A DNA stretch of 64,000 bases from Egibacteraceae bacterium (GTDB lineage Bacteria; Actinomycetota; Nitriliruptoria; Euzebyales; Egibacteraceae): contig JAUJMS010000006.1 of the NCBI GenBank assembly GCA_030446745.1, positions 4,498 through 68,497 of the forward strand. Direction: 5' to 3'. Positions 6,891 through 58,173 of the stretch are shown one piece after another. Position numbers and translations under genes: made by a program. Each line of letters opens with the position of its first letter. Position 1 is the stretch's first letter. A model generated the notes under the pieces. It was not told the origin of the DNA, ran no database searches, and worked only from the letters and a program-made list of their open reading frames with translations.

Positions 6891-8765
6891 TCACCGGGTA
6901 CTCGGCTGATCGGTCACGCGCCGGTTATCCGCGACCGGTCGGTGCCGGCGAAGAGGCGACGAGCATGGCAGCTCCTGCATCGGCGGCGGCGGAGGTTTGC
7001 CGTCTGGGGCGCCGCGGTCGTTCGGCGTCAAGATCGGTCGCGGATCATGCCACCCCGTCGGGTTGCTGCGCTTCGACCGCCGTCTCTGCGTTGCGGACCG
7101 GATCGACGGATGCCGCCGATTGCGTCGAGGCGATTCATCGCGCGCGTGTGGGGGGCGTCGCGCATCGTGGCGGAGTGACGGTCGCGGCCGTGCGTCGGAA
7201 ATTCGGTGGCCGCGCCGTCCCGGCTGAGGTCCGTCAGCCTCGGCCGCGTCGCCGGGGCGCCCGCCCCCGCCCGAACCGGCCGATCGGTCCTTCGGCGCTG
7301 CGTTGGAGGACTTCCGCGCGGGGCGGGCCTTGGGCGCCGGACGCGACTTCGAGGCGGGACGCGCCTTGGGCGCCGGACGCGACTTCGGGGCCGGACGCGC
7401 CTTGGGCGCCGGACGCGACTTCGGCGCCGGACGCGCCTTGGGCGCCGGACGCGGCTTCGGCGCCGGACGGGCCTTGGGCGCCGGACGCGGCTTCGCGCCG
7501 GACGCGCCTTGGGCGCCGGACGCGGCTTCGGCGCCGGACGCGCCTTGGGCGCCGGACGCGGCTTCGCGGCGGACGCGCCTTGGGCGCCGGACGCGGCTTC
7601 GGCGCCGGACGCGGCTTCGGCGCGGGACGTGGGCGCCGGACGCGGCTTCGAGGCGGACGCGCCTTGGGCGCCGGACGCGACGTCGCCGCCGTACGCCCAC
7701 GCCGGTCGCGATCCCGGTCGGCATGTCCGTCGCGACCACGCCGGCCGCGGTCCCGGTCGGCATTCGCGTCGCCGCCACGCCGGCCGCGATCCCGGTCAGC
7801 CTGCGCGCCCTTGGCCCCCGGCCGTCGTCGCCGATGGCCTTGTCACGGCGAGCATCACGGTCTCGGACGCTGGCGCCCCGCCGGTCGTCGCGAGCGCGTT
7901 TCGCACTCCCCTTCGCTGCTTCGGAGCGCCGACCGCGAGGCGCCCGTACGGTGTCCTCGTCCTCGGCCGGGGCGTCGAGCGCTGCGGCAAGCCGCCCCCG
8001 CCGGTCGAGCGCGACATCCGTGTCGGCATCCGCACGCACGGCGTCGGCGTCGGTCACTCCGTCGTCGCCGCCGTCCGCCGGATCCTCGGCAGATCCGGCG
8101 GCTTCTGCCGGTGCCACGCCGGCGGCCGACGGCAACGGCGTTGCCGCCGTCGGCGACAGCGCCCGCAAGCTCGCCGCGGTCCGCACGTCCGCCACCGTCG
8201 CCAGGGTGGCGAGGGTGGCAATGCGGGTCGCGGTCGCAGCGGCGAGCGTGATCGGGGCGTCGACGGCGCTCGGTGGGCCGAGCACCGTCGGACCACCGGC
8301 CACGGTCTCGCCGGCATCGACAGCGTCGGCGGATACGCCCGCGGTGGTGGCGGCGGGCGGTGCGCCGACCGCGTCAGCGACACCCGAGGCGGGCGCGGGG
8401 AGCAATGCCAGCAGCGGCGCGGCGGCAGGCGCGGTCCCAGCGTCGACCTCCGCCGCCGCGGTCGGCGACTCGGGCGCGATGCCGCCGCCCGCAGACGGTG
8501 CCGGCGCCACCGCTGAACCCGGCGGGGCGCCGACCTGCGCCCCGGTGTCACCGTCGCCTGGCTCGGATGCCGGCGGCTGTGCCGGTGGAACGGTGACGCC
8601 GCGGACGACCTGGAACGAGCTGCCGGCGGTGTCGGGGGTTCGCAGCAGCGGCCAGTCACGCTCGAGCGGCGCCATGCCGACCGTGCCGGCGGCCACCACG
8701 GACAGCGTCAACAGCAAGCCGAGCGCGGTGGTGGCGACCATGCCACGCGCGCCGTAGCCCGCCAT
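6891..8765 (-). CDS. membrane-anchored Ala/Pro-rich low-complexity protein with a K-x-R-P-A-P hexapeptide repeat array; C-terminal end uncertain
   Basis: N-terminal anchor MVATTALGLLLTLSVVAAGTV, then Ala/Pro/Asp-rich sequence, then KARPAPKPRPAPKARPAPKSRPAP... The same DNA repeat is read in three frames inside the ORF, so the true 3' part is unclear. Confidence 0.45.
   Translation of the reverse strand: MAGYGARGMVATTALGLLLTLSVVAAGTVGMAPLERDWPLLRTPDTAGSSFQVVRGVTVPPAQPPASEPGDGDTGAQVGAPPGSAVAPAPSAGGGIAPESPTAAAEVDAGTAPAAAPLLALLPAPASGVADAVGAPPAATTAGVSADAVDAGETVAGGPTVLGPPSAVDAPITLAAATATRIATLATLATVADVRTAASLRALSPTAATPLPSAAGVAPAEAAGSAEDPADGGDDGVTDADAVRADADTDVALDRRGRLAAALDAPAEDEDTVRAPRGRRSEAAKGSAKRARDDRRGASVRDRDARRDKAIGDDGRGPRARRLTGIAAGVAATRMPTGTAAGVVATDMPTGIATGVGVRRRRRVRRPRRVRLEAASGAHVPRRSRVRRRSRVRRPRRVRREAASGAQGASGAEAASGAQGASGAKPRPAPKARPAPKPRPAPKARPAPKSRPAPKARPAPKSRPAPKARPASKSRPAPKARPARKSSNAAPKDRSAGSGGGGRPGDAAEADGPQPGRRGHRISDARPRPSLRHDARRPPHARDESPRRNRRHPSIRSATQRRRSKRSNPTGWHDPRPILTPNDRGAPDGKPPPPPMQELPCSSPLRRHRPVADNRRVTDQPSTR
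7309..7690. repeat. tandem 18-nt repeat array, about 21 units alternating GCCTTGGGCGCCGGACGC / G(A/G)CTTCGGCGCCGGACGC
   Basis: Read directly from the sequence. Three units are 17 nt and one is 13 nt, and each changes the reading frame. Confidence 0.85.
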
Positions 8766-12884: not shown

Positions 12885-13732
12885 TGGACCATCCTGTGGT
12901 CGTGTGGCCCCCGCGGTCGGACGCGCCGAGAGCGCATCCCGCCAGGAGCAGGACGGTGACGTCTGCTGACGCTAGCACCGCCGGACACCGCGAACCAATC
13001 CGACGACGCCACCGTACCGGGGCGGTGTGACAGCCCAGGAGGCTACGGTGACGACGCTGTGGATCCCGCGCGCTGGCCCTACAAAGCCGAGCGCCGCCGC
13101 CGGGGATCGCGGCGCCTGGACCGGCTGGCCGCTATCCCCGGGGCGGCGCTCGATGCGCCTGCGCTTACAGCCGGGGCTTGTACGCAGGCCAGCGCGTCGT
13201 CCCACCGTTGGCGTGACCACGGGCGTCCGACATCCGGCTCGGCGGAGCCGTCGCTGACGAAGCGCGCGCGCCGCCGGAGTGCATGTGCAGCGGCGTACTC
13301 CACGGCATCGGCGGAGCGCCGCTCCTCGGCCGTGGTGCCGACGAGCCCGCCGCGGTTGTCGGCGCGGCGGCGCGCAGCAGTGCAAACCCGGCGAGCAGCG
13401 CGACCATTGCCGCCGCGAGCTGGATCGGCGCCGCCGTACCGGTCGCCGCGAGCGCACCACGCTCGATCACTGCACCGAGCACTGCGGTCCGTGGCGCACC
13501 ACGCGACACCTGATCGGCGGCAGGCCGGTCCGGGACGTCGGGGCGCCGATCGCGCGGTCCGTCGGTGTCGCCGCCGCGCGGCGGGCGATCGGTGTCGTTG
13601 CCGTCGGACCGCGGACGGTCACCGTCGTCCGGGTCTGGGCGTTCGACGACGATCGGGCTCACCCTTGTCGTGGGCTCGTCCGTGGGCGTCGGGCGTTCGG
13701 TCACGATAGGTCGGACGCCCTCCGAAGGCCTG

Positions 13733-13975
13733 GTCGTCGGCTCGTCCGTCGGCTCGTCCGTCGGCTCGTCCGTCGGCTCGTCCGTCGGGGTGTCCGTCGG
13801 CTCGTCGGTCGGGGTGTCGGTCGGCTCGTCGGTCGGGGTGTCCGTCGGCTCGTCGGTCGGGGTGTCGGTCGGCTCGTCGGTCGGGGTGTCGGTCGGCGTG
13901 TCCGTCGGCGGCGTGTCCGTCGGCCCGGTCGTCGGCGGCGTGTCCGTCGGCCCCGTCGTCGGGGTGTCCGTCGGG
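13733..13975. repeat. 12/24-nt tandem repeats encoding PTDE/PTDT linker (minus strand)
   Basis: GGCTCGTCCGTC x4, then GGGGTGTC(C/G)GTCGGCTCGTCGGTC units. Minus strand reads PTDEPTDEPTDEPTDTPTDEPTDTP... Confidence 0.8.
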
Positions 13976-14159
13976 TTGACGCAGCGGGCGAGGTCGGCGG
14001 GCGTCGTGACGACGAAGCTGGGATGCGCGCGCTGAACGCCTCCATCGCGTCGACCGAGTTCACGCTGACCTCGATCGGGTTCTGCCCGGTCTGCAGCGCC
14101 GGAACCCGTCGTCCGGGTTGCCGACGAACTTGCAGACCAGCACCTTGTTGTCGTCTTCG

Positions 14160-14345
14160 GTCGGCCTGTCCGTCGGCCCGTCGTCGGCGGCGTGTCGGTC
14201 GGCCCCGTCGTCGGCGGCGTGTCGGTCGGCCCCGTCGTCGGCGGCGTGTCGGTCGGCCCCGTCGTCGGCGGCGTGTCCGTCGGCCCCGTCGTCGGCGGCG
14301 TGTCCGTCGGCCCCGTCGTCGGGGTGTCCGTCGGCGGCGTGTCCG
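14160..14345. repeat. ~30-nt tandem repeats encoding TDTPPTTGPT linker (minus strand)
   Basis: GTCGGCCCCGTCGTCGGCGGCGTGTC(G/C), about 6 copies, read directly. Confidence 0.8.
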
Positions 14346-14869
14346 TCGGTTGACGCAGCGGGCGAGGTCAGCGGGCGTCGTGACGACGAAGCTGGGATGC
14401 GCGTCGCTGAACGCCTCCATCGCGTCGACCGAGTTCACGCTGACCTCGATCGGGTTCTGCCCGGTCTGCAGCCGGAACCCGTCGTCCGGGTTGCCGACGA
14501 ACTTGCAGACCAGCACCTTCTTGTCGTCTTCGGTCGGCCTGTCCGTCGGCCCGTCGTCGGCGGCGTGTCGGTCGGCCCGTCGTCGGCGGCGTGTCGGTCG
14601 GCCCGTCGTCGGCCCGTCGGTCGGCCCCGTCGTCGTCGGTCGGTCGCCCGTCGGCGTTGACGCAGCGGGCGAGGTCAGTCGGCGTCCGCCCGTCGGTCGG
14701 CCTCCATCGTGTCGACCGGCCCGCCCGTCGGAGTGTCGGTCTGGCCCGCCCGTCGGGGTGTCCGTCGGGTTGACGCAGCGGGCGAGGTCGGTCCGTCGGC
14801 CCGTCGTGACGACGAAGCTGGGCCCGTGCGCGTCGCTGAACGCCTCCATCGCGTCGCCCGGAGTTGACG

Positions 14870-15170
14870 CTGCCCGTCGGGGTGTCGGCCCGCCCGTCGG
14901 GGTGTCGGTCGGCCCGCCCGTCGGGGTGTCCGTCGACGCCCGTCGGGGTGTCCGTCGGCCCGCCCGTCGGGGTGTCCGTCGGCCCGCCCGTCGGGGTGTC
15001 CGTCGGCCCGCCCGTCGGGGGGTGTCCGTCGGCCCGCCCGTCGCGGGGTGTCCGTCGGCCCGCCCGTCGGGGTGTCCGTCGGCCCGCCCGTCGGGGTGTC
15101 CGTCGGCCCCGTCCGTCGGGGTGTCCGTCGGCCCGGTCGTCGGGTCGCTGTCGCCCGCCCGTCGGGGGGT
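14870..15170. repeat. 24-nt tandem repeats encoding TPTGGPTD linker (minus strand), with unit-length variants
   Basis: GTCCGTCGGCCCGCCCGTCGGGGT, about 10-11 copies. Variants CGGGGGGTG, CGCGGGGTG and GGCCCCGTCCGTC change the unit length. Confidence 0.8.
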
Positions 15171-15454
15171 GACCGCTCACGCGCGTCGGGGTGTCCCTCG
15201 GCCCACCCGACGAAGTCCGCCGGGATCACCGTCCGGGTTCTGCTCGGTCGCTGTCGAAACGTCGCCGACGTCCCCGACCCCCTCGAACCGCTGCGACGAA
15301 CTTGACGAAGAGCCAGCACCTTCGACGGCGTTCTTCGGTCCGAGAACGTCACCGTCGGCCCGACCCACTCGAAGTCGACGGTCCGCGAACAGCAAGACCA
15401 CGTTCTCGGTCGGCCGCCCTTCAGCCGCCCCCACCGGCCGCCGCGGGGTCGACG

Positions 15455-16275
15455 GTGTCCTTCTCCGCCGCGGCCTGCTCAGCCGCCCGCTTGTCCGCCG
15501 CCCCGCCTCAGTCGCCTTCTCCGCCGGCCTGCCAGCCGCTTGGCCGCCGCCTCTTCCTCAGCCGCCTTCTCCGCCGCAGCCTGCTCAGCCGCCCGCTTGG
15601 CCGCCGCCTCTTCCTCAGCCGCCTTCTCCGCCGCAGCCTGCTCAGCCGCCCGCTTGGCCGCCGCCTCTTCCTCAGCCGCCTTCTCCGCCGCAGCCTGCTC
15701 AGCCGCCCGCTTGGCCGCCGCTCAGCCGCTCCGCCGCAGCCTGCTCAGCCGCCCGCTTGGCCGCCGCCTCTTCCTCAGCCGCCTTCTCCGCCGCAGCCTG
15801 CTCAGCCGCCCGCTTGGCCGCCGCCTCTTCCTCAGCCGCCCTCCGCAAGACCCGCCGCAGCCTGCTCAGCCGCCTTCTCCGCCGCAGCCTTGGCCGCCGC
15901 CTCGAAGTCTTCCTCAGCCGCCTTCTCCGCCGCAGCCTGCTCAGCCGCCCGCTTGGCCGCCGCCTCTTCCTCAGCCGCCTTCTCCGCCGCAGCCTGCTCA
16001 GCCGCCCGCTTGGCCGCCGCCTCTTCCTCAGCCGCCTTCTCCGCCGCAGCCTGCTCAGCCGCCCGCTTGGCCGCCGCCTTCTCAGCCGCCTTCTCCGCCG
16101 CAGCCTGCTCAGCCGCCCGCTTGGCCGCCGCCTCTTCCTCAGCCGCCTTCTCCGCCGCGGCCTGCTCAGCCGCCCGCTTGGCCGCCGCCTCTTCCTCAGC
16201 CGCCTTCTGCCGCGGCCTGCTCAGCCGCCCGCTTGGCCGCCGCCTCTTCCTCAGCCGCCTTCTTGGCCGCAGCGT
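15455..16275. repeat. 57-nt tandem repeat array (about 14 units) encoding the 19-aa unit AKRAAEQAAAEKAAEEEAA on the minus strand
   Basis: Unit CTTGGCCGCCGCCTCTTCCTCAGCCGCCTTCTCCGCCGCAGCCTGCTCAGCCGCCCG. Frame-breaking variants near 15710-15755 (46-nt unit), ~15841 and ~16209 (both -2 nt, both creating ...AEGG-stop). Confidence 0.9.
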
Positions 16276-16761
16276 CCGCCACAACCTTTTCGGCCGCGGC
16301 CTCGTCAGCGAGGAACTGCTCCACGGCAGCGGCTTCCCCGGTAGCGGCCGTTTTCGCGGCGAATGCCGCGGTGGTCGGCCCAAACGCGATGAGCAGCGTC
16401 AGGAGGGACAGGAACAGGTGCCGGGTGATCCGGCGACGATTCGAGGAACGCATCAGTGGCCCTACCCGAGTTACCGGTTCCCACAGGAACCGAAGCGGTA
16501 CGTCGAATCCGGGTCGGGCTCGCCACTCGCTTCACTCAAGGGGCGGGAAAGCCGCTCAAGCGGCTCCCCCAGGCGACCGAGTACCCCCTCGAGGATCACT
16601 GCATCCCGGTGGTGCGATGGTTCCAGAACGGGCGGCCGATCGGGCCGCCTCGCGGCGCCCCCCTCGGTGTGTCCCTCCCGCCTGCGTGCTTCCGTCCAAG
16701 GACCTGCGTAACGCGGCCCTCACTGTGCGTACGGTCCCCACCGAGCGGAAGACGCCCCCGC

Positions 16762-16799
16762 ACAGGGGACTGCACCCGCCCCCATACAGGGGACTGCAC
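16762..16799. repeat. 14-nt direct repeat ACAGGGGACTGCAC x2 (24-nt period) in the leader/promoter region of the surface-protein locus
   Basis: Exact copies at 16762-16775 and 16786-16799, about 310-345 nt upstream of the 16453 start. Confidence 0.6.
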
Positions 16800-16823
16800 G
16801 TCGGAGTGTGCCCGCTGTCGCGG

Positions 16824-16856
16824 TAAAACGCAACCCCAAACCGCGTCGAGTTGCGT
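16824..16856 (-). terminator. intrinsic-terminator-like hairpin downstream of the LOG gene
   Basis: Minus-strand RNA ACGCAAC-N15-GUUGCGU followed by UUUUAC. Lies 27 nt after the stop at 16883. Confidence 0.5.
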
Positions 16857-16882
16857 AATCGACGTCTGGAAACTTTTTCCAC

Positions 16883-17503
16883 TCAGCGTGGCGGCACGTC
16901 CGTAGCCTCGAGGGCCACCTCGGAGTCGTCCACACCGTCCCCCGACACAGGCCGGTACGACGCGAGCGCGGCGATCGTCGCTGGGACGTCCGTCGTGACG
17001 TCGAACAGGTCGAGCAGGCCCTCGCCAGCGAGGCGCTCGGCCACCATCCGGCGCAGCTGGCCGAGCAGCGGATCCCAGTAGCCCCCCGAGTCGAGGACGA
17101 CGATCGCACGGTCGTGGTAGCCGAGCTGTTTGAGGGTGAGGATCTCGACGAGTTCTTCGAGCGTGCCGATGCCGCCCGGCAGCACGACAAAGGCATCCGC
17201 GCGGTCGTCCATGATCGCTTTGCGTTCGCGCATGGTGTCGGTGCGGATGAGCTCGGTGACCGCCTCGAGGGCGACCTCGCGCTCGGCGAGGCGATGCGGG
17301 ATGACGCCGGTGACATGCGCGCCGGCGGCGAGCGCAGCGCGCGCGACCTCGCCCATCAACCCGATGCTGCCGCCGCCGTAGACCAGCGACCAACCGCGCC
17401 CCGCAATCGCGCGCCCAAGCTCGGCGGCCGCCGCCCGGTGTTCGGGCGCTGCGGCTTCGCTGGACGCGCAGTACACGCAGACCCGAAGTGGTGCGGTCGT
17501 CAT
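16883..17503 (-). CDS. LOG-family (TIGR00730-type) cytokinin riboside 5'-monophosphate phosphoribohydrolase-like protein
   Basis: VCVYCASS, LVYGGGSIGLMG, VLPGGIGTLEEL (PGGxGTxxE). Start at the internal ATG giving 206 aa; the long upstream extension of the track ORF was rejected. Confidence 0.85.
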   Translation of the reverse strand: MTTAPLRVCVYCASSEAAAPEHRAAAAELGRAIAGRGWSLVYGGGSIGLMGEVARAALAAGAHVTGVIPHRLAEREVALEAVTELIRTDTMRERKAIMDDRADAFVVLPGGIGTLEELVEILTLKQLGYHDRAIVVLDSGGYWDPLLGQLRRMVAERLAGEGLLDLFDVTTDVPATIAALASYRPVSGDGVDDSEVALEATDVPPR

Positions 17504-30405: not shown

Positions 30406-32916
30406 CTACGGGGAATCGGCCGTCGCGTCGCTGTTCCCGGTCTTGCCGCCACCCTTGCCGCCGGGATCTTCTTCCGTTGGCTCCGGCTCGGGCTCGGCCT
30501 CGGCCTCGGTCGGCTCGGGCTCGGGCTCGGGCTCCGGCTCCGGGGACGGGCTCGGCTTCGGGGCGCGGGTGGGGTCCGGCTCCGGTTCCGGTTCCGGCTC
30601 CGGCTTCGGCTTGGGTGCGGGCCGCGGTTTGTCCTCCGGTTCCGGTTCCGGCTCCGGTTCCGGCTCCGGCTCCGGCTCCGGCTCGGTCTGCTCGGGTCGC
30701 GGCTGGGGCTCGGTCTCTTCGGCTGCCTCGTCGCTCGGCGGCGGCGGCGGCGCGGTCGGCTCGGGCTCGGTCACCCTGTCCTCAGGCTTCTCGCTCGGCG
30801 CCTCCGTCGGCTCGGGTGTGCGCGTCGGCTCGACGTCGACGCACACCGGCGTGCCCTCGGGGTCCTCGCTCAGCGCCTCACGGCGCCCGCAGTCGGGGGT
30901 GGCGGGCGGACTCGGCCGGGTCACCTTCAGCCCGCCCGGCGGCGGCGGGAAGTCCTCGGGCGGCACACCGTCGAGCGCGGCCAGCATGAACGCGCGCCAC
31001 GTCTTGGCCGGCAGGCTGCCGCCGGTGAACTTGCCCTCCATCGGCTTGTTGTTGTCGCGGTTGCCCATCCACACCGCGGTCGTCAGCTGCGGCGTGTAGC
31101 CGACGAACCAGGCGTCGCCGTTGTTCTGCGTCGTGCCGGTCTTGCCGGCCGCGGGCCGGTCGATGTCCGCGGCGGTGCCCGAGCCGCGGGTGACGACGCC
31201 GCGCAGGACGTCGGTGACGGTCAGGGCGACGCGCTCGCTGACGACCCGCTCGCCCTTCGTCGGCGCGCGGTACAGCGTCTCGCCGCCGCGGCGGACCTCC
31301 TCGACGGTGTGCGCGTCGCGGTGCACGCCGCCGGTCGCGAAGGTGCTGTACGCCTCGGCCATCTCCAGCGGCGTGACGTTGGAGGTGCCGAGCACCAGCG
31401 ACGGAACCACGGCGAGCTTGCTGTCGATACCGGCCTTCTGCGCCACCGCCCGCACGCGCTCGGGACGCACGTCGCGGTCGAGCACGACCTGGGCGTAGAC
31501 GGTGTTGACGGACTTCTCGGTCGCTTCGCGCAGGCTGAGCTCACCGTAGGCCGCGCCCTCGTAGTTCTCGGGGGCCCAGCCGCCGTCTGGCTGGTCGCGG
31601 TCGAGCATCCGCTCCAGCTCCGCCTCGGTGTACTTGATCTTGGCGGGTGCGTCGAAGTAGCTCTCGGGCGACTTGCCGGCGTCGACCCACGCGGCCAGCG
31701 CGAACGGCTTGAACGTCGAGCCGGGCTGGCGCGCCGCCTCGGCGAGGTTGAGCTGGCTGCGCCCGTAGTCCTTTCCGCCGACGAGGGCGCGGATGCCGCC
31801 GGTGTCGTTGTCGACCGCGACGAGCGCCGCGGTCGGCTCGATGCGCGACGCGACGAACGACTCGCGGTACGTCTGCTCGGCCTCGCGCTGCAGCGCCATG
31901 TCCAGCGTCGTCGTGACGACCAGCCCCGAGTAGATCTCGTTGGCGCCGACCTCGCGCTCGAGCTCTTCCTGCACGCTCTGCAAGAAGTAGGGCGCCGACT
32001 TGAAGACGACCCCTGCGGCCTTGCGCGTGCGTGGCGGCTTGGCGGCGAGCTTGCCGGCGCGCGCGGGCGCGAGCCACCCCTTGTCCACCATCTGGCCGAG
32101 GACGTAGCGGTAACGCCCCTGCGCGTCGTCGGGGTTGTCGCGCGGGTCGTAGGCCGACGGGGCGGCGATGATGCCGGCGAGCATCGCGGCCTCGTCGACG
32201 CGCAGCTTGGCGGCCGGCTTGTCGAAGTAGGCGGTGGCAGCCGCCTCGATGCCGTACGCCCCGCGGCCCCAGTAGATCGAGTTGAGGTAGAACTCGAGGA
32301 TCTCGTCCTTGGAGTAGCTGCGCTCGAGTTTCACCGCCAGGGCGGCTTCGCGGACCTTGCGCAGCAGCGACCGCTCGTCGTCGGTCGTGGCGTTCTTGAC
32401 GTACTGCTGGCTGATCGTCGAACCGCCCTGGCTGATCTCACCGGCCGTCACGTTGCGCAGCGCGGCGCGGAAGATGCCCGGCAGGCTCAGCCCGCGGTGC
32501 TCGTAGAACGCGGCGTCCTCGGCGGCGAGCACGGCGTCGCGCACATGGTCGGGCAGCGCGTCGAGTTTCACGTCCTCGCGGCTGGTCTCGGCCTGCAGCG
32601 TCGCGATCTCAGCACCGGTGGTGTCGAGGATGACGGTGGCGCGCACCCCGATGTCGTCGGGCAGCGGCACGGCCGTGAAGAAGTAGAAGAACAGAGTCAC
32701 CGCCGCGAACGCGAGCCCGGCGAGCGGCAGGGCCAGCAGCAGCGCGACGGGGCGGCGGTACCACGGCCGCCGCCGTGTGGCGGGGCTTGCCGCGGGCGCG
32801 CCGCCCTTGGTCGGCCGCGCCGCTCGCGCGCGGCCCGGCCGCGGGGGGGCACCGGACGGTCGGGACCGGCGCGCACCCGGCGAGCGCCTCCGCGGAGGCT
32901 GGAAGGTGCCGGTCAT
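30406..32916 (-). CDS. ponA: class A penicillin-binding protein (GT51 transglycosylase plus transpeptidase) with a ~190-aa Pro/Glu-rich C-terminal tail
   Basis: [23 protein letters not shown] (GT51). STFKPF, SVN, KTGTT (transpeptidase). N-terminal TM helix. Tail [16 protein letters not shown]...[12 protein letters not shown]. Confidence 0.9.
30478..30700. repeat. hexanucleotide GGCTC(C/G) microsatellite-like tracts (Glu-Pro dipeptide repeats of the PBP tail)
   Basis: Read directly: runs of GGCTCCGGCTCGGGCTCG... in three blocks. Confidence 0.8.
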
Positions 32917-54140: not shown

Positions 54141-55034
54141 TCATTCGTCCTGGAGCGACGTGCCCGCACCCCGCGCGACGACCGCGAGGAGACGTTCGAG
54201 GTCGTGCGCGCCGGCGTAGTCGATCACCACCCGACCACGGCGCGGCGACCCGGTGATCCGCACCCGAGTGGCGAGCGCGTCGCTGAGGCGACGTTCCAGG
54301 TCGCCGTACGGCGACGCCGCCCGAGCCTTCGCGGCGGCGGCGAGATCGGGCATGACACCATCGTCGGTTGCGGGTTCCGTGAGGCGGCGCACGAGTTCTT
54401 CGGCCGCGCGCACGGACAGGCCCTCGCCGACGACACGTTGCGCCACCCGGCGTTGGGTCCCGGCGTCGGGCAGCGCGAGGAGTGCCCGCGCGTGGCCGGC
54501 ACTCAATGCGCCGGTGGCGACGTGGTGCTGCAGCTCTGGTGGCAGGGTGAGCAGCCGCAGGGTGTTGGACACCGCGGACCGGGACTTGCCGAGCTTGCTC
54601 GCCAGCGCCTCGTGCGTGATGCCGAAGTCGTCACGCAGCTGCTGGTACGCCGCCGCCTCCTCGAGGGGATTGAGGTCGGCGCGGTGGACGTTCTCTACCA
54701 GTGCTTCCGTGAGCAGGTCGGCGTCCTCGGTGTGGCGCACGACGGCCGGGATCTCGGCGAGACCGGCGAGCCGTGCGGCGCGGAAGCGACGCTCCCCGGC
54801 CACGATCTCGAATCGCTCTCCGGCGACGGGGCGCACGACGATGGGCTGCAACACGCCGACCTCACGCAGCGAGTGGGCCAACTCCTCCAGGGCCGCGTCG
54901 TCGAAGACGCCCCGCGGCTGTCTGGGATTCGGCTGGATGGCGGTGAGTGGCAGGGACAGGAGTCCGCTGCGGCCGGGTTCCGCCGTGGGGATGAGCGCCC
55001 CGAGGCCTCGTCCCAGCCCGCTTGGTCGGCTCAC
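54141..55034 (-). CDS. parB: chromosome partitioning protein ParB
   Basis: LPLTAIQPNPRQPRGVFD, LQPIVVRP, IVAGERRFRAARLAG, HTH SKLGKSRSAVSNTLRLL. Confidence 0.9.
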   Translation of the reverse strand: MSRPSGLGRGLGALIPTAEPGRSGLLSLPLTAIQPNPRQPRGVFDDAALEELAHSLREVGVLQPIVVRPVAGERFEIVAGERRFRAARLAGLAEIPAVVRHTEDADLLTEALVENVHRADLNPLEEAAAYQQLRDDFGITHEALASKLGKSRSAVSNTLRLLTLPPELQHHVATGALSAGHARALLALPDAGTQRRVAQRVVGEGLSVRAAEELVRRLTEPATDDGVMPDLAAAAKARAASPYGDLERRLSDALATRVRITGSPRRGRVVIDYAGAHDLERLLAVVARGAGTSLQDE

Positions 55035-57454
55035 CGTTGTGCCCCTTCGTCGCTGTTGTGCAACCGCTCGAGCACCTCCGCGGCGAGGCGCCGGTACGCC
55101 CGCGCGCCGCGCGACGAGGGGTCGAAGACGGTGATCGGCTGGCCATAACTCGGCGCTTCAGCCAGCCGGACGGAACGCGGGATGCGCGTGGTGAAGACGC
55201 GCTCGCCGAAGTGGGCGATGACCTCGTCGACGACCTGCTGACCCAATCGCGTCCGGGCGTCGAGCATCGTGAGCACGAACCCGGTGATCTCCAGCGCCGC
55301 GTTGAGGTTGTCCTTGATGAGCTCGGCGTTGCGCCGCAGTGCCCCGAGTCCCTCCAGGGCGTAGTACTCGCACTGGATCGGCACGACGACGCCGTCGGCG
55401 GCTGAGAGGGCGTTGACGGTCAACAGGCCGAGGCTCGGCGGGCAGTCGATGAGCACGACGTCGAAGTCGCTACGCACATGCTCCAGCGAGCGACGAAGCC
55501 GTTGTTCCCGGCTGAACGCCGTCACCAGCTCGATCTCGGCGCCGGCAAGGTCAATGGTCGCCGGCAACACGAACAGATTCCGCACACTCGTCGGCTCGAC
55601 GGCGTCAACGATGTCGGCGTTGGACACGAGCACGTCGTAGACGGTCGGCCGGCCGCTCGCGACCCGGACGCCAACGCCTGAGGTCGCGTTGCCTTGTGGA
55701 TCGAGGTCGACGAGCAGCACGCGGGCACCGAGGTCGGCGAGGGCCGCGGCCAGGCTCACCGCGGTCGTCGTCTTCCCGACCCCACCCTTCTGGTTGGCGA
55801 CGGTGAGCACCCGTGCCCGCTCGAACCGTGGCGCCGACACCGGCGTGGAGGCGGTGTCAAGCACAGCGCGGACGTCCTCGACCGCCGGGTCCAGGCGCGA
55901 TGGTTCCACGTGAAACAATGGCCCGGAGGCCACGGGGGCGGTCGCGAGATCCGGGGCGGCCGGGGCGTCAGCGTTGCGCACCGCTCCGGGCGCCGGGCGG
56001 TCGGCGGCGACCGGTACCTCAGCGCCCGCCGCGGGCGGCGACGCGCCGGCGGCCTCACCGCCGCCGGGAGCCGCGGCAGCACCGTGCTCCACGGTCGCGT
56101 CGTGCGATCCCCCCTCGTCCGCTCCGCCAGCGCCCTGTGTGGGTACGTCTCCAGGCCACTCACCGCGGACCGGGTGAGCGCCGGCGGTTTGGTCCGCATC
56201 CGCCGAGGCGTCCGGCGCGCCGCGCGGCGCCGAAACGCCAGATGGGGCCGCGGCGCCGCCGTCCTCGCCGAGGTGCATGACCGAGCCAGCGGACGCCTTG
56301 GCGGTCCGATCGCTACCCACCGCCGAAACGCCAGGCGTGGCCGCGGCCCCGCCGTGGCCGCCGACGTCCACGACCGAGCGGACGGACGCCCGGGCGGCCT
56401 CCTCCCTGTCGGCCGCCCCCACGGCGGCGGATGGCTCGGGTTCAGCGCCTGGGCCCATGTCAGCCGGAGCCTCCGTCGTCGGCATCTGCGACCCGGCGTG
56501 CGGACCGCGCTCGCGGTCAACGGCCGCCACCACGGGAGTCTCCGGCACGTGAGGCCGGGCCGGCACGGCGCCTCCGGCGCTCGCATGGACTGCGGTGCCG
56601 TCAGCATCGTCGGCGGGGGTGGCGTCCCGGCGCCTTTCGAACTCGGGCGCGGAGTCGTGAATCTCTCGTTTGGCCGGAACATCCAACGCGGTGTCGACCT
56701 CGCGTACGCCGCGCACCGCCGACGAGTCACCGCCGGTCGGCGGGTCGGGCATGTCGCGCGCGGCCGGAACGTCCGACCATCCGACAGCGGGACGGTCACG
56801 GTCTGGCGCCGACGAGCCCGAAGGCGACTTCAGGCTCGCGTTGCCGACATCGCCCTCGGCCGCCGGGTCCGGCACCTCCCGTACGGCCGGAACATCGGAC
56901 CGGGCGGCCGCGCCGGGTTCACCCAGCACCGGCGCCGACAGTCTTTGCGGCGCTGGCGCGCCCCAGTCGCCGCCATCAGCCTCCGCCCCTGGCTCGGGCA
57001 GCTCCCGCGCGGCCGGAACATCGAAGCCGGCGTGGACGCCTTGCTCATGCGCCGGCGCTGACGCGCCGGCCGACGCTTCCTCCCCGCCGTCGCCACCGCC
57101 CTTTGCCGCCGAATCGGACACCTCCCGCGCGGCCGGAACGTCGAACCGAACGGCGGCGCCGAGGTCCATGTCCCCGGCTGCCGCTCGGTGGCCGCCGCGG
57201 ACCGTTCCCTGGGGGTCGCCCGCGCCGGCCGCCAGTCGTCTCCCCGAGTCGCCATCGGCTCTCGGAACGTCCGACGTCGCCGCGACACCGTCGGCAGGGC
57301 GGGCTGGCGGCGCGGCGCCCGGCCGGGCCTCCGCGCCACGAACGATGCTGCCCCGGTTCGCGGGCGGCGCCGCGCCCGTGGGGCCCGGTTCGCCGTGCGC
57401 CTCGTCGCCAACGCCGGTACCGGCCCAGTACCGATACCAGCGTTGAGGGGTCAT
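55031..57454 (-). CDS. parA: ParA/Soj partitioning ATPase with a ~510-aa low-complexity N-terminal extension
   Basis: Core VLTVANQKGGVGKTTT, LLVDLDPQGN, VLIDCPPSLG. The frame stays open, with GC-rich third positions, up to ATG 57454, which overlaps the rsmG stop as ATGA. A shorter product from an internal start cannot be excluded. Confidence 0.75.
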   Translation of the reverse strand: MTPQRWYRYWAGTGVGDEAHGEPGPTGAAPPANRGSIVRGAEARPGAAPPARPADGVAATSDVPRADGDSGRRLAAGAGDPQGTVRGGHRAAAGDMDLGAAVRFDVPAAREVSDSAAKGGGDGGEEASAGASAPAHEQGVHAGFDVPAARELPEPGAEADGGDWGAPAPQRLSAPVLGEPGAAARSDVPAVREVPDPAAEGDVGNASLKSPSGSSAPDRDRPAVGWSDVPAARDMPDPPTGGDSSAVRGVREVDTALDVPAKREIHDSAPEFERRRDATPADDADGTAVHASAGGAVPARPHVPETPVVAAVDRERGPHAGSQMPTTEAPADMGPGAEPEPSAAVGAADREEAARASVRSVVDVGGHGGAAATPGVSAVGSDRTAKASAGSVMHLGEDGGAAAPSGVSAPRGAPDASADADQTAGAHPVRGEWPGDVPTQGAGGADEGGSHDATVEHGAAAAPGGGEAAGASPPAAGAEVPVAADRPAPGAVRNADAPAAPDLATAPVASGPLFHVEPSRLDPAVEDVRAVLDTASTPVSAPRFERARVLTVANQKGGVGKTTTAVSLAAALADLGARVLLVDLDPQGNATSGVGVRVASGRPTVYDVLVSNADIVDAVEPTSVRNLFVLPATIDLAGAEIELVTAFSREQRLRRSLEHVRSDFDVVLIDCPPSLGLLTVNALSAADGVVVPIQCEYYALEGLGALRRNAELIKDNLNAALEITGFVLTMLDARTRLGQQVVDEVIAHFGERVFTTRIPRSVRLAEAPSYGQPITVFDPSSRGARAYRRLAAEVLERLHNSDEGAQR
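55902..55917. promoter_or_regulatory. parS centromere-like site (15/16 to TGTTCCACGTGAAACA)
   Basis: GGTTCCACGTGAAACA inside parA, encoding LFHVEP just upstream of the ATPase core. Confidence 0.8.
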
Positions 57455-58173
57455 CGAGGCGGCCTTCCAAGCGGATGGCGACGCGGCATCCCGTCGCGGC
57501 GGGGGTAGCCCGCCGGCGGGTCGCCCACCGCTCGCATGGTAACAAGCCAGGTCGGTCGCTCGACGGTGGCGACGTCGCTGCTGTGCACATCGGCGAAGCG
57601 CAACAGCGACAGCGCCTGTCGCGCCTGCGCCAACTCCTCGCGCCACGCAGGACCCTTGACGGCGGCGAGGACACCGTCGGCTCGCAGGAAGCCGCGCGCC
57701 AGTTCGGCCAAGGTCACGAGCGGTGCAACGGCTCTCGCGATGACGCCGTCAAAGCTGCCGCGCTCGGCAGGCTCGTGCGCGACCGTCTCCGCCCGTCCGT
57801 GAAGCGCGGCGACGTTGTCCAGCCCCAACGTTGCCGCGAACGCCTCGACGGCCGCGATCTTCTTGCGCGTGGCATCGAGCAACACCCACGCGACGGTCGG
57901 ATACCGCACCGCGAGCACCAGTCCGGGCAGGCCGCCGCCCGTTCCGAGGTCGAGCCACCGCGAGCCGGGCGCGGGCGACAGCGCCGCCCCGACCGCAAGC
58001 GCTTCGCGAACGTGTCGCTCGTAGACGGTGGCGCGCTCGCCGGCTGCCACGAGGTTGTGCGGCGAATCCGCGATGAGGCCTGCCAAGCGACGCAGGACCG
58101 CGTCATCGGAATGGCTGTGACCTGCGGAAATGCCCTCACTCGCCCGCTGTGGCGAGTTACGCTGCGCCGCCAT
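57451..58173 (-). CDS. rsmG: 16S rRNA (guanine527-N7)-methyltransferase
   Basis: WLDLGTGGGLPGLVLA SAM motif, VIARAVAPL. Internal ATG with a GGGGAGGGG RBS gives 240 aa. Confidence 0.9.
   Translation of the reverse strand: MAAQRNSPQRASEGISAGHSHSDDAVLRRLAGLIADSPHNLVAAGERATVYERHVREALAVGAALSPAPGSRWLDLGTGGGLPGLVLAVRYPTVAWVLLDATRKKIAAVEAFAATLGLDNVAALHGRAETVAHEPAERGSFDGVIARAVAPLVTLAELARGFLRADGVLAAVKGPAWREELAQARQALSLLRFADVHSSDVATVERPTWLVTMRAVGDPPAGYPRRDGMPRRHPLGRPPR

Follow-up and report, generated by a model that had tools for sequence, protein, structure and literature searches.

A 64,000-nucleotide (nt) stretch of an Egibacteraceae bacterium genome (assembly GCA_030446745.1, contig JAUJMS010000006.1, positions 4,498 to 68,497 of the forward strand; hereafter the window) carries on its minus strand a riboswitch-led gene, or the remnant of such a gene, for a modular secreted surface protein. 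The features of the locus are collected in Table 1, with positions counted from the first letter of the window. An original prediction, made by a model that saw only the letters and a list of open reading frames (ORFs), had proposed a single, apparently sortase-anchored surface-protein gene at this place, shattered into at least seven pieces. When the three minus-strand frames were read from 16453 to 13165, all the elements that it had listed were present at their positions, which supports that the locus is, or was, one gene for a modular secreted protein. The riboswitch upstream of the gene, its insertion context and a further frame-slipped repeat gene in the window had been missed.

Table 1. 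Features of the surface-protein locus, in the direction of transcription
Feature	Position	Strand	Basis
c-di-GMP-II-GCG riboswitch aptamer (Rfam RF03170)	16503..16615	-	Rfam scan
Leader, putative expression platform	16454..16502	-	Sequence and minimum free energy (MFE) folds
Start codon and Sec-type signal peptide	16358..16453	-	Inspection: basic n-region, hydrophobic h-region, AFA↓A cleavage-type site
57-nt (19-residue) Ala/Glu/Lys repeat, ~13 copies, encodes AEKAAEEEAAAKRAAEQAA	15460..16273	-	Tandem Repeats Finder and unit splitting
Spacer without assigned identity, reading frame uncertain	15210..15459	-	Profile, blastn, Pfam and homologue searches
24-nt array, DTPTGGPT	14884..15209	-	Tandem Repeats Finder, 13.5 copies
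Module B, C-terminal half only (profile positions 31-62)	14751..14875	-	Family profile
Module C, two short fragments (VD.MEA ... DLARCVN)	14648..14718	-	blastn
Module D, complete two-Cys domain in one frame	14349..14549	-	Family profile, 95 bits
27-nt array, read as DTPPTTGPT or, in a different frame, as ADGHAADDG	14152..14343	-	Tandem Repeats Finder
Module E, copy of D spread over three frames through indels of +2 (GC) and -1 (A)	13955..14176	-	Profile, blastn
24-nt PTDT/PTDE array (Pfam PT repeat, PF04886)	13735..13974	-	In frame with all downstream
LAATG (13452-13438) and 21-residue hydrophobic segment TAAPIQLAAAMVALLAGFALL (13437-13375), candidate class-E-type signal or plain membrane anchor	13375..13452	-	
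Overlong tail behind the transmembrane (TM) segment, 70 codons to TAA, weak codon bias	13165..13374	-	Frame reading

Signal peptide, repeat arrays and reading frames

The ATG at 16453 opens the predicted Sec signal peptide, MRSSNRRRITRHLFLSLLTLLIAFGPTTAAFA, whose parts are read by inspection as MRSSNRRRITRH-LFLSLLTLLIAFG-PTTAAFA↓A, as expected for a sortase substrate. Behind it, Tandem Repeats Finder measured 12.8 copies of the 57-nt unit (score 717, 15536-16273), where some 14 helical repeats of 19 residues had been counted before. Units of 55, 54, 46 and 49 nt occur in this array, corresponding to deletions of 2, 3, 4+7 and ~8 nt. The frame of the array is broken by deletions of 2, 2, 4+7 and ~8 nt, behind which off-frame TGA stops appear. 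The product of the array is probably a long α-helical stalk. The TPTGGPTD array, given earlier as about 10 copies, is present and has odd units of 20, 22, 25, 26 and 26 nt. The TDTPPTTGPT array is also present, with 6.9 copies at 14152-14335, although its unit has nine residues and not the ten proposed; its last unit has GGG in place of GGGG. The PTDE/PTDT repeats form a 24-nt array (13744-13974) that matches the Pfam PT repeat with 36.6 bits against a cut-off of 26.2, a family that describes merely a low-complexity linker and gives no functional information. Searches of the locus against Pfam and NCBIfam found nothing beyond this repeat.

The LAATG motif and hydrophobic helix lie exactly where they had been placed. 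LA.TG followed by a hydrophobic stretch occurs in just three cases in all six frames of the 64 kb, which makes a chance origin unlikely here, as it is for the module and the riboswitch by their E values given below, and the combination of L(P/A)XTG with about 20 hydrophobic residues is that of a sortase substrate. The TM segment is followed by one Arg and then by the 70 in-frame codons of the overlong tail. No frame has a stop within 65 codons, and the short basic tail and stop of a sortase substrate are absent.

No minus-strand frame is open throughout 16453-13165, and in the recorded sequence the gene is dead. The ORF from the ATG stops after 85 codons, two of the module copies are incomplete, and the C-terminal signal does not end properly. 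A shortest-path computation gives at least six frame switches, i.e. seven pieces, as the hard minimum for a stop-free path to the TAA at 13167-13165, the same lower bound as in the original prediction. Higher counts, from ~16 switches with each repeat in its consensus frame (homology-guided parse) to ~20 in a codon-usage-guided decoding, depend on the model used; the 27-nt array, for example, has a second possible reading, ADGHAADDG, which shares the frame of module E. The phase of the GC content at third codon positions (GC3) rotates repeatedly along the locus. A functional gene would be a single uninterrupted frame from start to stop; this one, as recorded, is untranslatable past codon 85, because of either pseudogene decay or sequencing errors in the repeats.

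The two-Cys module and its family

Module D is the best preserved of the module copies, keeping all the invariant and near-invariant residues of its family (V12, V14, C15, G19, G30, N32, P33, I34, V36, F47, D49, H51, V56 and C65). A word-indexed homology search with module D gave no match; an exhaustive HMMER scan of 1.84 billion representative sequences then found the family, with 271 matches, for the most part to secreted proteins, at E ≤ 1e-3 and 16 at E ≤ 1e-10 (best E 2.4e-18) and 55-67% identity to the best matches. The family consensus is KVWVCKxVGxPG..RLxTGxNPIxVSVNS.DA..AFSDAHPSFVV...C, with two invariant cysteines, and module D has the significant match, both cysteines and the G..NPI.V core that define a member. 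Among the 150 best family matches, 133 have signal-like N-termini. An LPXTG or LAXTG motif with a TM segment and a basic tail is found in 43 of these 150 (20 LAxTG, 23 LPxTG), and 39 have the TM segment and basic tail without the motif; members of the family to which the Cys module belongs are very often sortase substrates. The family has no Pfam or NCBIfam model, and its members are named only 'hypothetical protein' in the source records. Judged by sequence comparison, the two-Cys domain is a widespread, undescribed surface-protein domain family.

The AlphaFold model of module D has a predicted local distance difference test score (pLDDT) of 57 from the single sequence and of 84 with an alignment, and shows four short strands and two helices. 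Foldseek found no fold match to this model in the PDB (best E 5.4). Most members of the family have one or two copies of the domain right after the signal peptide, whereas here the copies sit in PT linkers behind the helical stalk.

A search of the six-frame translation of the window with the family profile recovered module D complete, module E across three frames and module B as a half (best E 1e-28). Two Cys modules had been predicted; D and E are indeed full copies of a 60-residue module, and the partial copies B and C come in addition. D and E are ~96% identical at the DNA level including gaps, of which there are three, and their duplicate core (~290 nt) has 2 substitutions against 5 indels. 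Module E matches the family only when stitched together from the three frames. Module B is 85% identical to D at the DNA level, with in-frame insertions. A further, degenerate module had been placed at 15440-15200. The same profile search found nothing there, and blastn, Pfam and homologue searches of the interval, even after frame repair, gave no similarity to the Cys module or to any other sequence; it was dropped as a module and stands in Table 1 as a spacer.

No close relative came up when metagenomes were scanned with module D. Small members of the family occur at loci L164 (4001-4342) and L165 (4001-4372) in phage-like neighbourhoods (YopX, Rad52, CHAP/LysM endolysin, VRR-NUC), and the domain is therefore not confined to chromosomal sortase substrates. 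In the closest single-domain relatives (P0012, P0013, P0019, P0023, P0026, P0028, P0035 and P0036), the signal segment ends in A(W/F/Y)(M/F)SDSG, an ending that we take to resemble the SipW/TasA-type alternate class of signal peptides.

Riboswitch, leader and insertion context

The c-di-GMP-II-GCG aptamer is the sole Rfam match in the 64 kb. With 54.7 bits it exceeds the gathering score of 47.9 (E 3.5e-7 for the window); it covers positions 1-85 of the 85 of the model and ends 50 nt upstream of the ATG on the same strand, the position of a 5' leader element. In the conserved cores GGA.GC..GA, UCGGUCGCCUG and UGGCGAGCCCGACC the aptamer agrees fully with the consensus; in the outer P1 pairs it does not, and one of its loops carries an additional hairpin of 28 nt.

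In the leader between the aptamer and the start codon there is a GGUUCC-UGUG-GGAACC hairpin, and ~8 nt ahead of the AUG comes AGGG, which resembles a Shine-Dalgarno element. MFE folds pair the conserved 3' strand of the aptamer, AGUGGCGAGCCCGACCCGG, with the AGGG element and the AUG region, which suggests a translational ON switch. From the same folding we infer an alternative pairing composed of AGUGGC:GCCACU, GCCCGA:UCGGGU and CCGG:CCGG. No riboswitch was found by Rfam at eight other loci, four that encode members of the family and four related ones, which gives no support to a general association of riboswitch and domain. The window contains no GGDEF or EAL genes.

The genes that flank the locus are all on the minus strand: a LOG-family gene (16883-17479) on one side, and rpsF, ssb, rpsR, rplI and dnaB on the other. 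By LOG, the closest relatives in genome and metagenome scans are Euzebyaceae/Nitriliruptorales metagenome-assembled genomes (MAGs), at 60-76% identity. The slot between LOG and rpsF measures 208-1935 bp in 15 related Nitriliruptoria loci, as against the ~3.8 kb inserted here. The two-Cys domain is in none of these 15 slots, and no orthologue of the gene was found in the scans with the neighbouring LOG gene or in the metagenome scan with module D. Because the conserved rpsF leader reaches only to ~13036, the region of roughly 13040-16880 is a lineage-specific insert.

The slot is either empty or holds other cargo, the latter in two relatives, as described from ORF translations by eye and without family searches: two small ORFs that together resemble a toxin–antitoxin module (L002, 10716-11362), and ORFs resembling a glutamine amidotransferase and a fragment of an ABC-type ATPase (L003, 6402-8337). 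The slot looks like an insertion hotspot next to ribosomal-protein genes whose cluster is highly conserved. Two tandem 24-nt units, each with a CCCC...GGGGG hairpin, are found at 16753-16799, after the stop codon of LOG and before the riboswitch; these may be a terminator of LOG or a protein-binding site.

Origin of the frame breaks and relation to known systems

The explanation that would best account for these features is a lineage-specific ~3.8-kb insert in a Nitriliruptoria/Euzebyaceae-like actinobacterium, forming one minus-strand transcription unit in which the c-di-GMP-II-GCG-type riboswitch precedes the gene for a fibrillar secreted surface protein of ~1,100 residues. The protein would consist of the Sec signal peptide, an EAAAK-like helical stalk of ~250 residues, Pro/Thr-rich spacer arrays carrying small disulfide-type two-Cys modules, and the C-terminal LAATG with its hydrophobic anchor, attached by a class E sortase or by simple membrane anchoring. 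Ligand binding would free the Shine-Dalgarno element and the AUG from the 3' strand of the aptamer, acting as an ON switch, and the surface protein would be made when a c-di-GMP-like signal is high, following the logic of the Clostridioides difficile sortase substrates. That the GCG variant is a genuine on-switch of a LAXTG-type fibrillar surface protein with a two-Cys domain in Nitriliruptoria is a tentative proposal, and one that we consider rather unlikely as a whole. Class E sortases use LAXTG (PMC5148588), and sortase anchoring is plausible by analogy with the family. The claim of the original prediction on this point is not fully supported: the recorded sequence lacks two defining features of a sortase substrate, the short basic tail with its stop and a model score above cut-off. 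A plain C-terminal membrane anchor is the alternative.

As to the frame breaks, the original prediction left two options, a decaying pseudogene or an intact gene with assembly faults in its repeats, and this is the correct pair to choose between. We slightly prefer, at about even chances, to regard the breaks as genuine and the locus as a recently inactivated, decaying pseudogene of a dispensable, lineage-specific adhesin-like gene. The missing N-terminal half of module B and the fragments of module C represent deletions of ~100 nt and not slips of 1-2 nt, and the lack of a frame with basic tail and stop behind the TM segment falls in unique, non-repeat sequence. Indel sizes vary between 1 and 11 nt, insertions and deletions both occur, and most lie outside homopolymers. 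Modules D and E are each preceded, at the homologous position, by the same GGGG-to-GGG state, which is most simply explained by inheritance through the duplication. Codon bias is weak at 13170-13560. The other genes of the window, whose ORFs tile it, appear uninterrupted (eight neighbouring or suspect ORFs checked by Pfam gave distinct families or no match). The gene would be dispensable, since it is absent from the slot in the 15 related loci and has no orthologue.

A number of observations weigh against this picture, both in its function and in the origin of the breaks. The sorting-signal hidden Markov models (TIGR01167, PF00746) did not match the recorded sequence, and a trimmed and repaired tail stayed below the cut-offs (TIGR01167 14.6 bits against 15.9; NF058583 19 against 65). 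No TLxTC-type sortase motif occurs in a plausible ORF within the window, in agreement with the absence of a sortase gene noted before. The fold of the expression platform is indistinct from that of shuffled sequences (z -1.5 to -1.65), and to our knowledge the ligand of the GCG variant is not experimentally established. Among near-identical copies, indels equal or outnumber substitutions (in the D/E core as given above, and mostly indels in the central 57-nt units); such an indel-dominated spectrum is typical of long-read consensus error and not of neutral decay. The main rival, to which we assign somewhat less than an even chance, is that the gene is intact in the organism under the same riboswitch and the breaks are consensus or polishing errors in tandem repeats and near-identical duplicates. 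Short reads may have failed to polish a long-read consensus in the repeats or at 75-79% GC, or a metagenomic consensus may have merged strains differing in repeat copy number. The differences among repeat copies are also deletion-biased, and only ~1/14 of the indels are a multiple of 3 in repeats that are otherwise 95-100% identical. The breaks are limited to tandem arrays and near-identical duplicates, and in the window to the repeats of two separate genes; the second of these, a tandem-repeat gene 5 kb away (7311-7696), has 1-nt slips that a technical cause fits equally well. The riboswitch, start codon, signal peptide and module D look pristine, and the codon-position GC signal in the repeats is perfect (GC3 ~1.0 in the repeat frames). 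That public assemblies of this clade do contain frameshift errors is seen from a related nanopore MAG (L009). However, the locus would need an error density more than 300-fold above that of the remaining window, many of the indels measure 2-11 nt outside homopolymers, and small indels could not repair the truncated modules B and C or the missing canonical C-terminal end. The identical GGG in the D and E copies argues for inheritance, and an (EP)n array elsewhere in the window stays in frame.

Other readings of the breaks are far less probable. The frame changes might be functional, produced by programmed recoding or by slipped-strand phase variation in a contingency gene for a surface protein; the tandem repeats of such genes are well-known substrates of phase variation, and the locus would be under second-messenger control. 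However, at least six independent switches of mixed size and direction, without a shared slippery motif, are seen here, while phase variation uses a single tract whose length toggles one frame and does not leave 6-20 scattered lesions, and we consider this very improbable. The true gene could also lie on the plus strand, where there is a very long open frame (13279..16344, 1021 aa) and another at 15191..16711, with the minus-strand features as shadows. The GC3 phase rotates along 13279..16344, and its product is Arg-rich and has no Pfam match. The minus strand, in contrast, has the 95-bit match to the domain family, the signal peptide and, in the correct orientation, the riboswitch. We reject the plus-strand ORFs as shadows, and this reading is effectively refuted.

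The second frame-slipped repeat gene is the minus-strand ORF 6891..8765, which has an N-terminal TM segment, an 18-nt KPRPAP/KARPAP array at 7311-7696 and no Pfam match. Three units of the array are 17 nt long and one is a 31-nt composite, and because of these odd-length units the ORF reads one DNA repeat successively as RRVRRP, EAASGA and KPRPAP. The (EP)n array is part of a KP-rich low-complexity tail (30479-30717, minus strand) at the C-terminus of a ~900-residue gene and, unlike the other two repeat loci, is in frame. In the 871-residue ORF at 55031-57646 (minus strand), a ParA/AAA_31 ATPase domain occupies residues 612-858. Its N-terminal extension of ~600 residues has a rotating GC3 phase and a 93-nt tandem duplication (56228-56397); the true start is therefore probably much further downstream. 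In L009, a nanopore-derived Euzebyaceae MAG, dnaB is split over several frames (13742-14977), which points to genome-wide frameshift errors in that assembly; dnaB is intact in the window.

The frame-slipped repeat genes at the two sites of the window need flagging, as pseudogenes or as a matter of assembly quality, before proteins are inferred from them; gene callers may otherwise annotate the 1021-aa shadow ORF on the opposite strand (13279-16344, plus). If the GCG variant is a genuine on-switch here, the variant riboswitch class would gain a cell-surface or adhesion regulon in high-GC Actinobacteria, and the unnamed domain family its first regulatory context, as long as the gene still is, or very recently was, intact in vivo. 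Two leads follow, the ligand sensed by the GCG variant and the binding partner of the two-Cys domain.

The order of parts (signal peptide, helical repeats, Pro-rich wall-spanning region, sorting signal) is that of the streptococcal M-protein-like wall proteins. There is no sequence homology to these, the 19-residue Ala/Glu/Lys unit with EAAAK resembles a single stable helix more closely than it does a heptad coiled coil, and globular two-Cys modules are set in the Pro/Thr region. With the substrates of the class E sortase (SrtE), namely the Streptomyces chaplins and the SrtE-dependent proteins of Actinoplanes, the predicted protein shares a LAXTG-type pentapeptide and a C-terminal hydrophobic segment (PMC5148588, PMC13251363). 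It differs from them in having no short basic tail and stop, no sorting-signal score above cut-off, no sortase in the window and no chaplin or hydrophobin-like domain.

The closest parallel in regulation comes from the Clostridia. The sortase substrate CD2831 of C. difficile is positively regulated by c-di-GMP (PMC6447587), and in Paraclostridium c-di-GMP-II riboswitches are found, in tandem, upstream of surface-anchor genes (PMC9481103). As in these systems, a riboswitch of the c-di-GMP-II clan lies here directly upstream of a repeat-rich secreted surface-protein gene with a sorting-type signal. In contrast to them, the riboswitch is the GCG variant RF03170 and not the canonical c-di-GMP-II, the motif is LAATG and not (S/P)PXTG, the domains are unrelated to the collagen-binding or Cna type, the coding region is broken, and the host is of the high-GC Nitriliruptoria type. 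Second-messenger riboswitches that drive sortase-type adhesins, known in Clostridia, would thus have a counterpart of similar logic in deep-branching high-GC actinobacteria.

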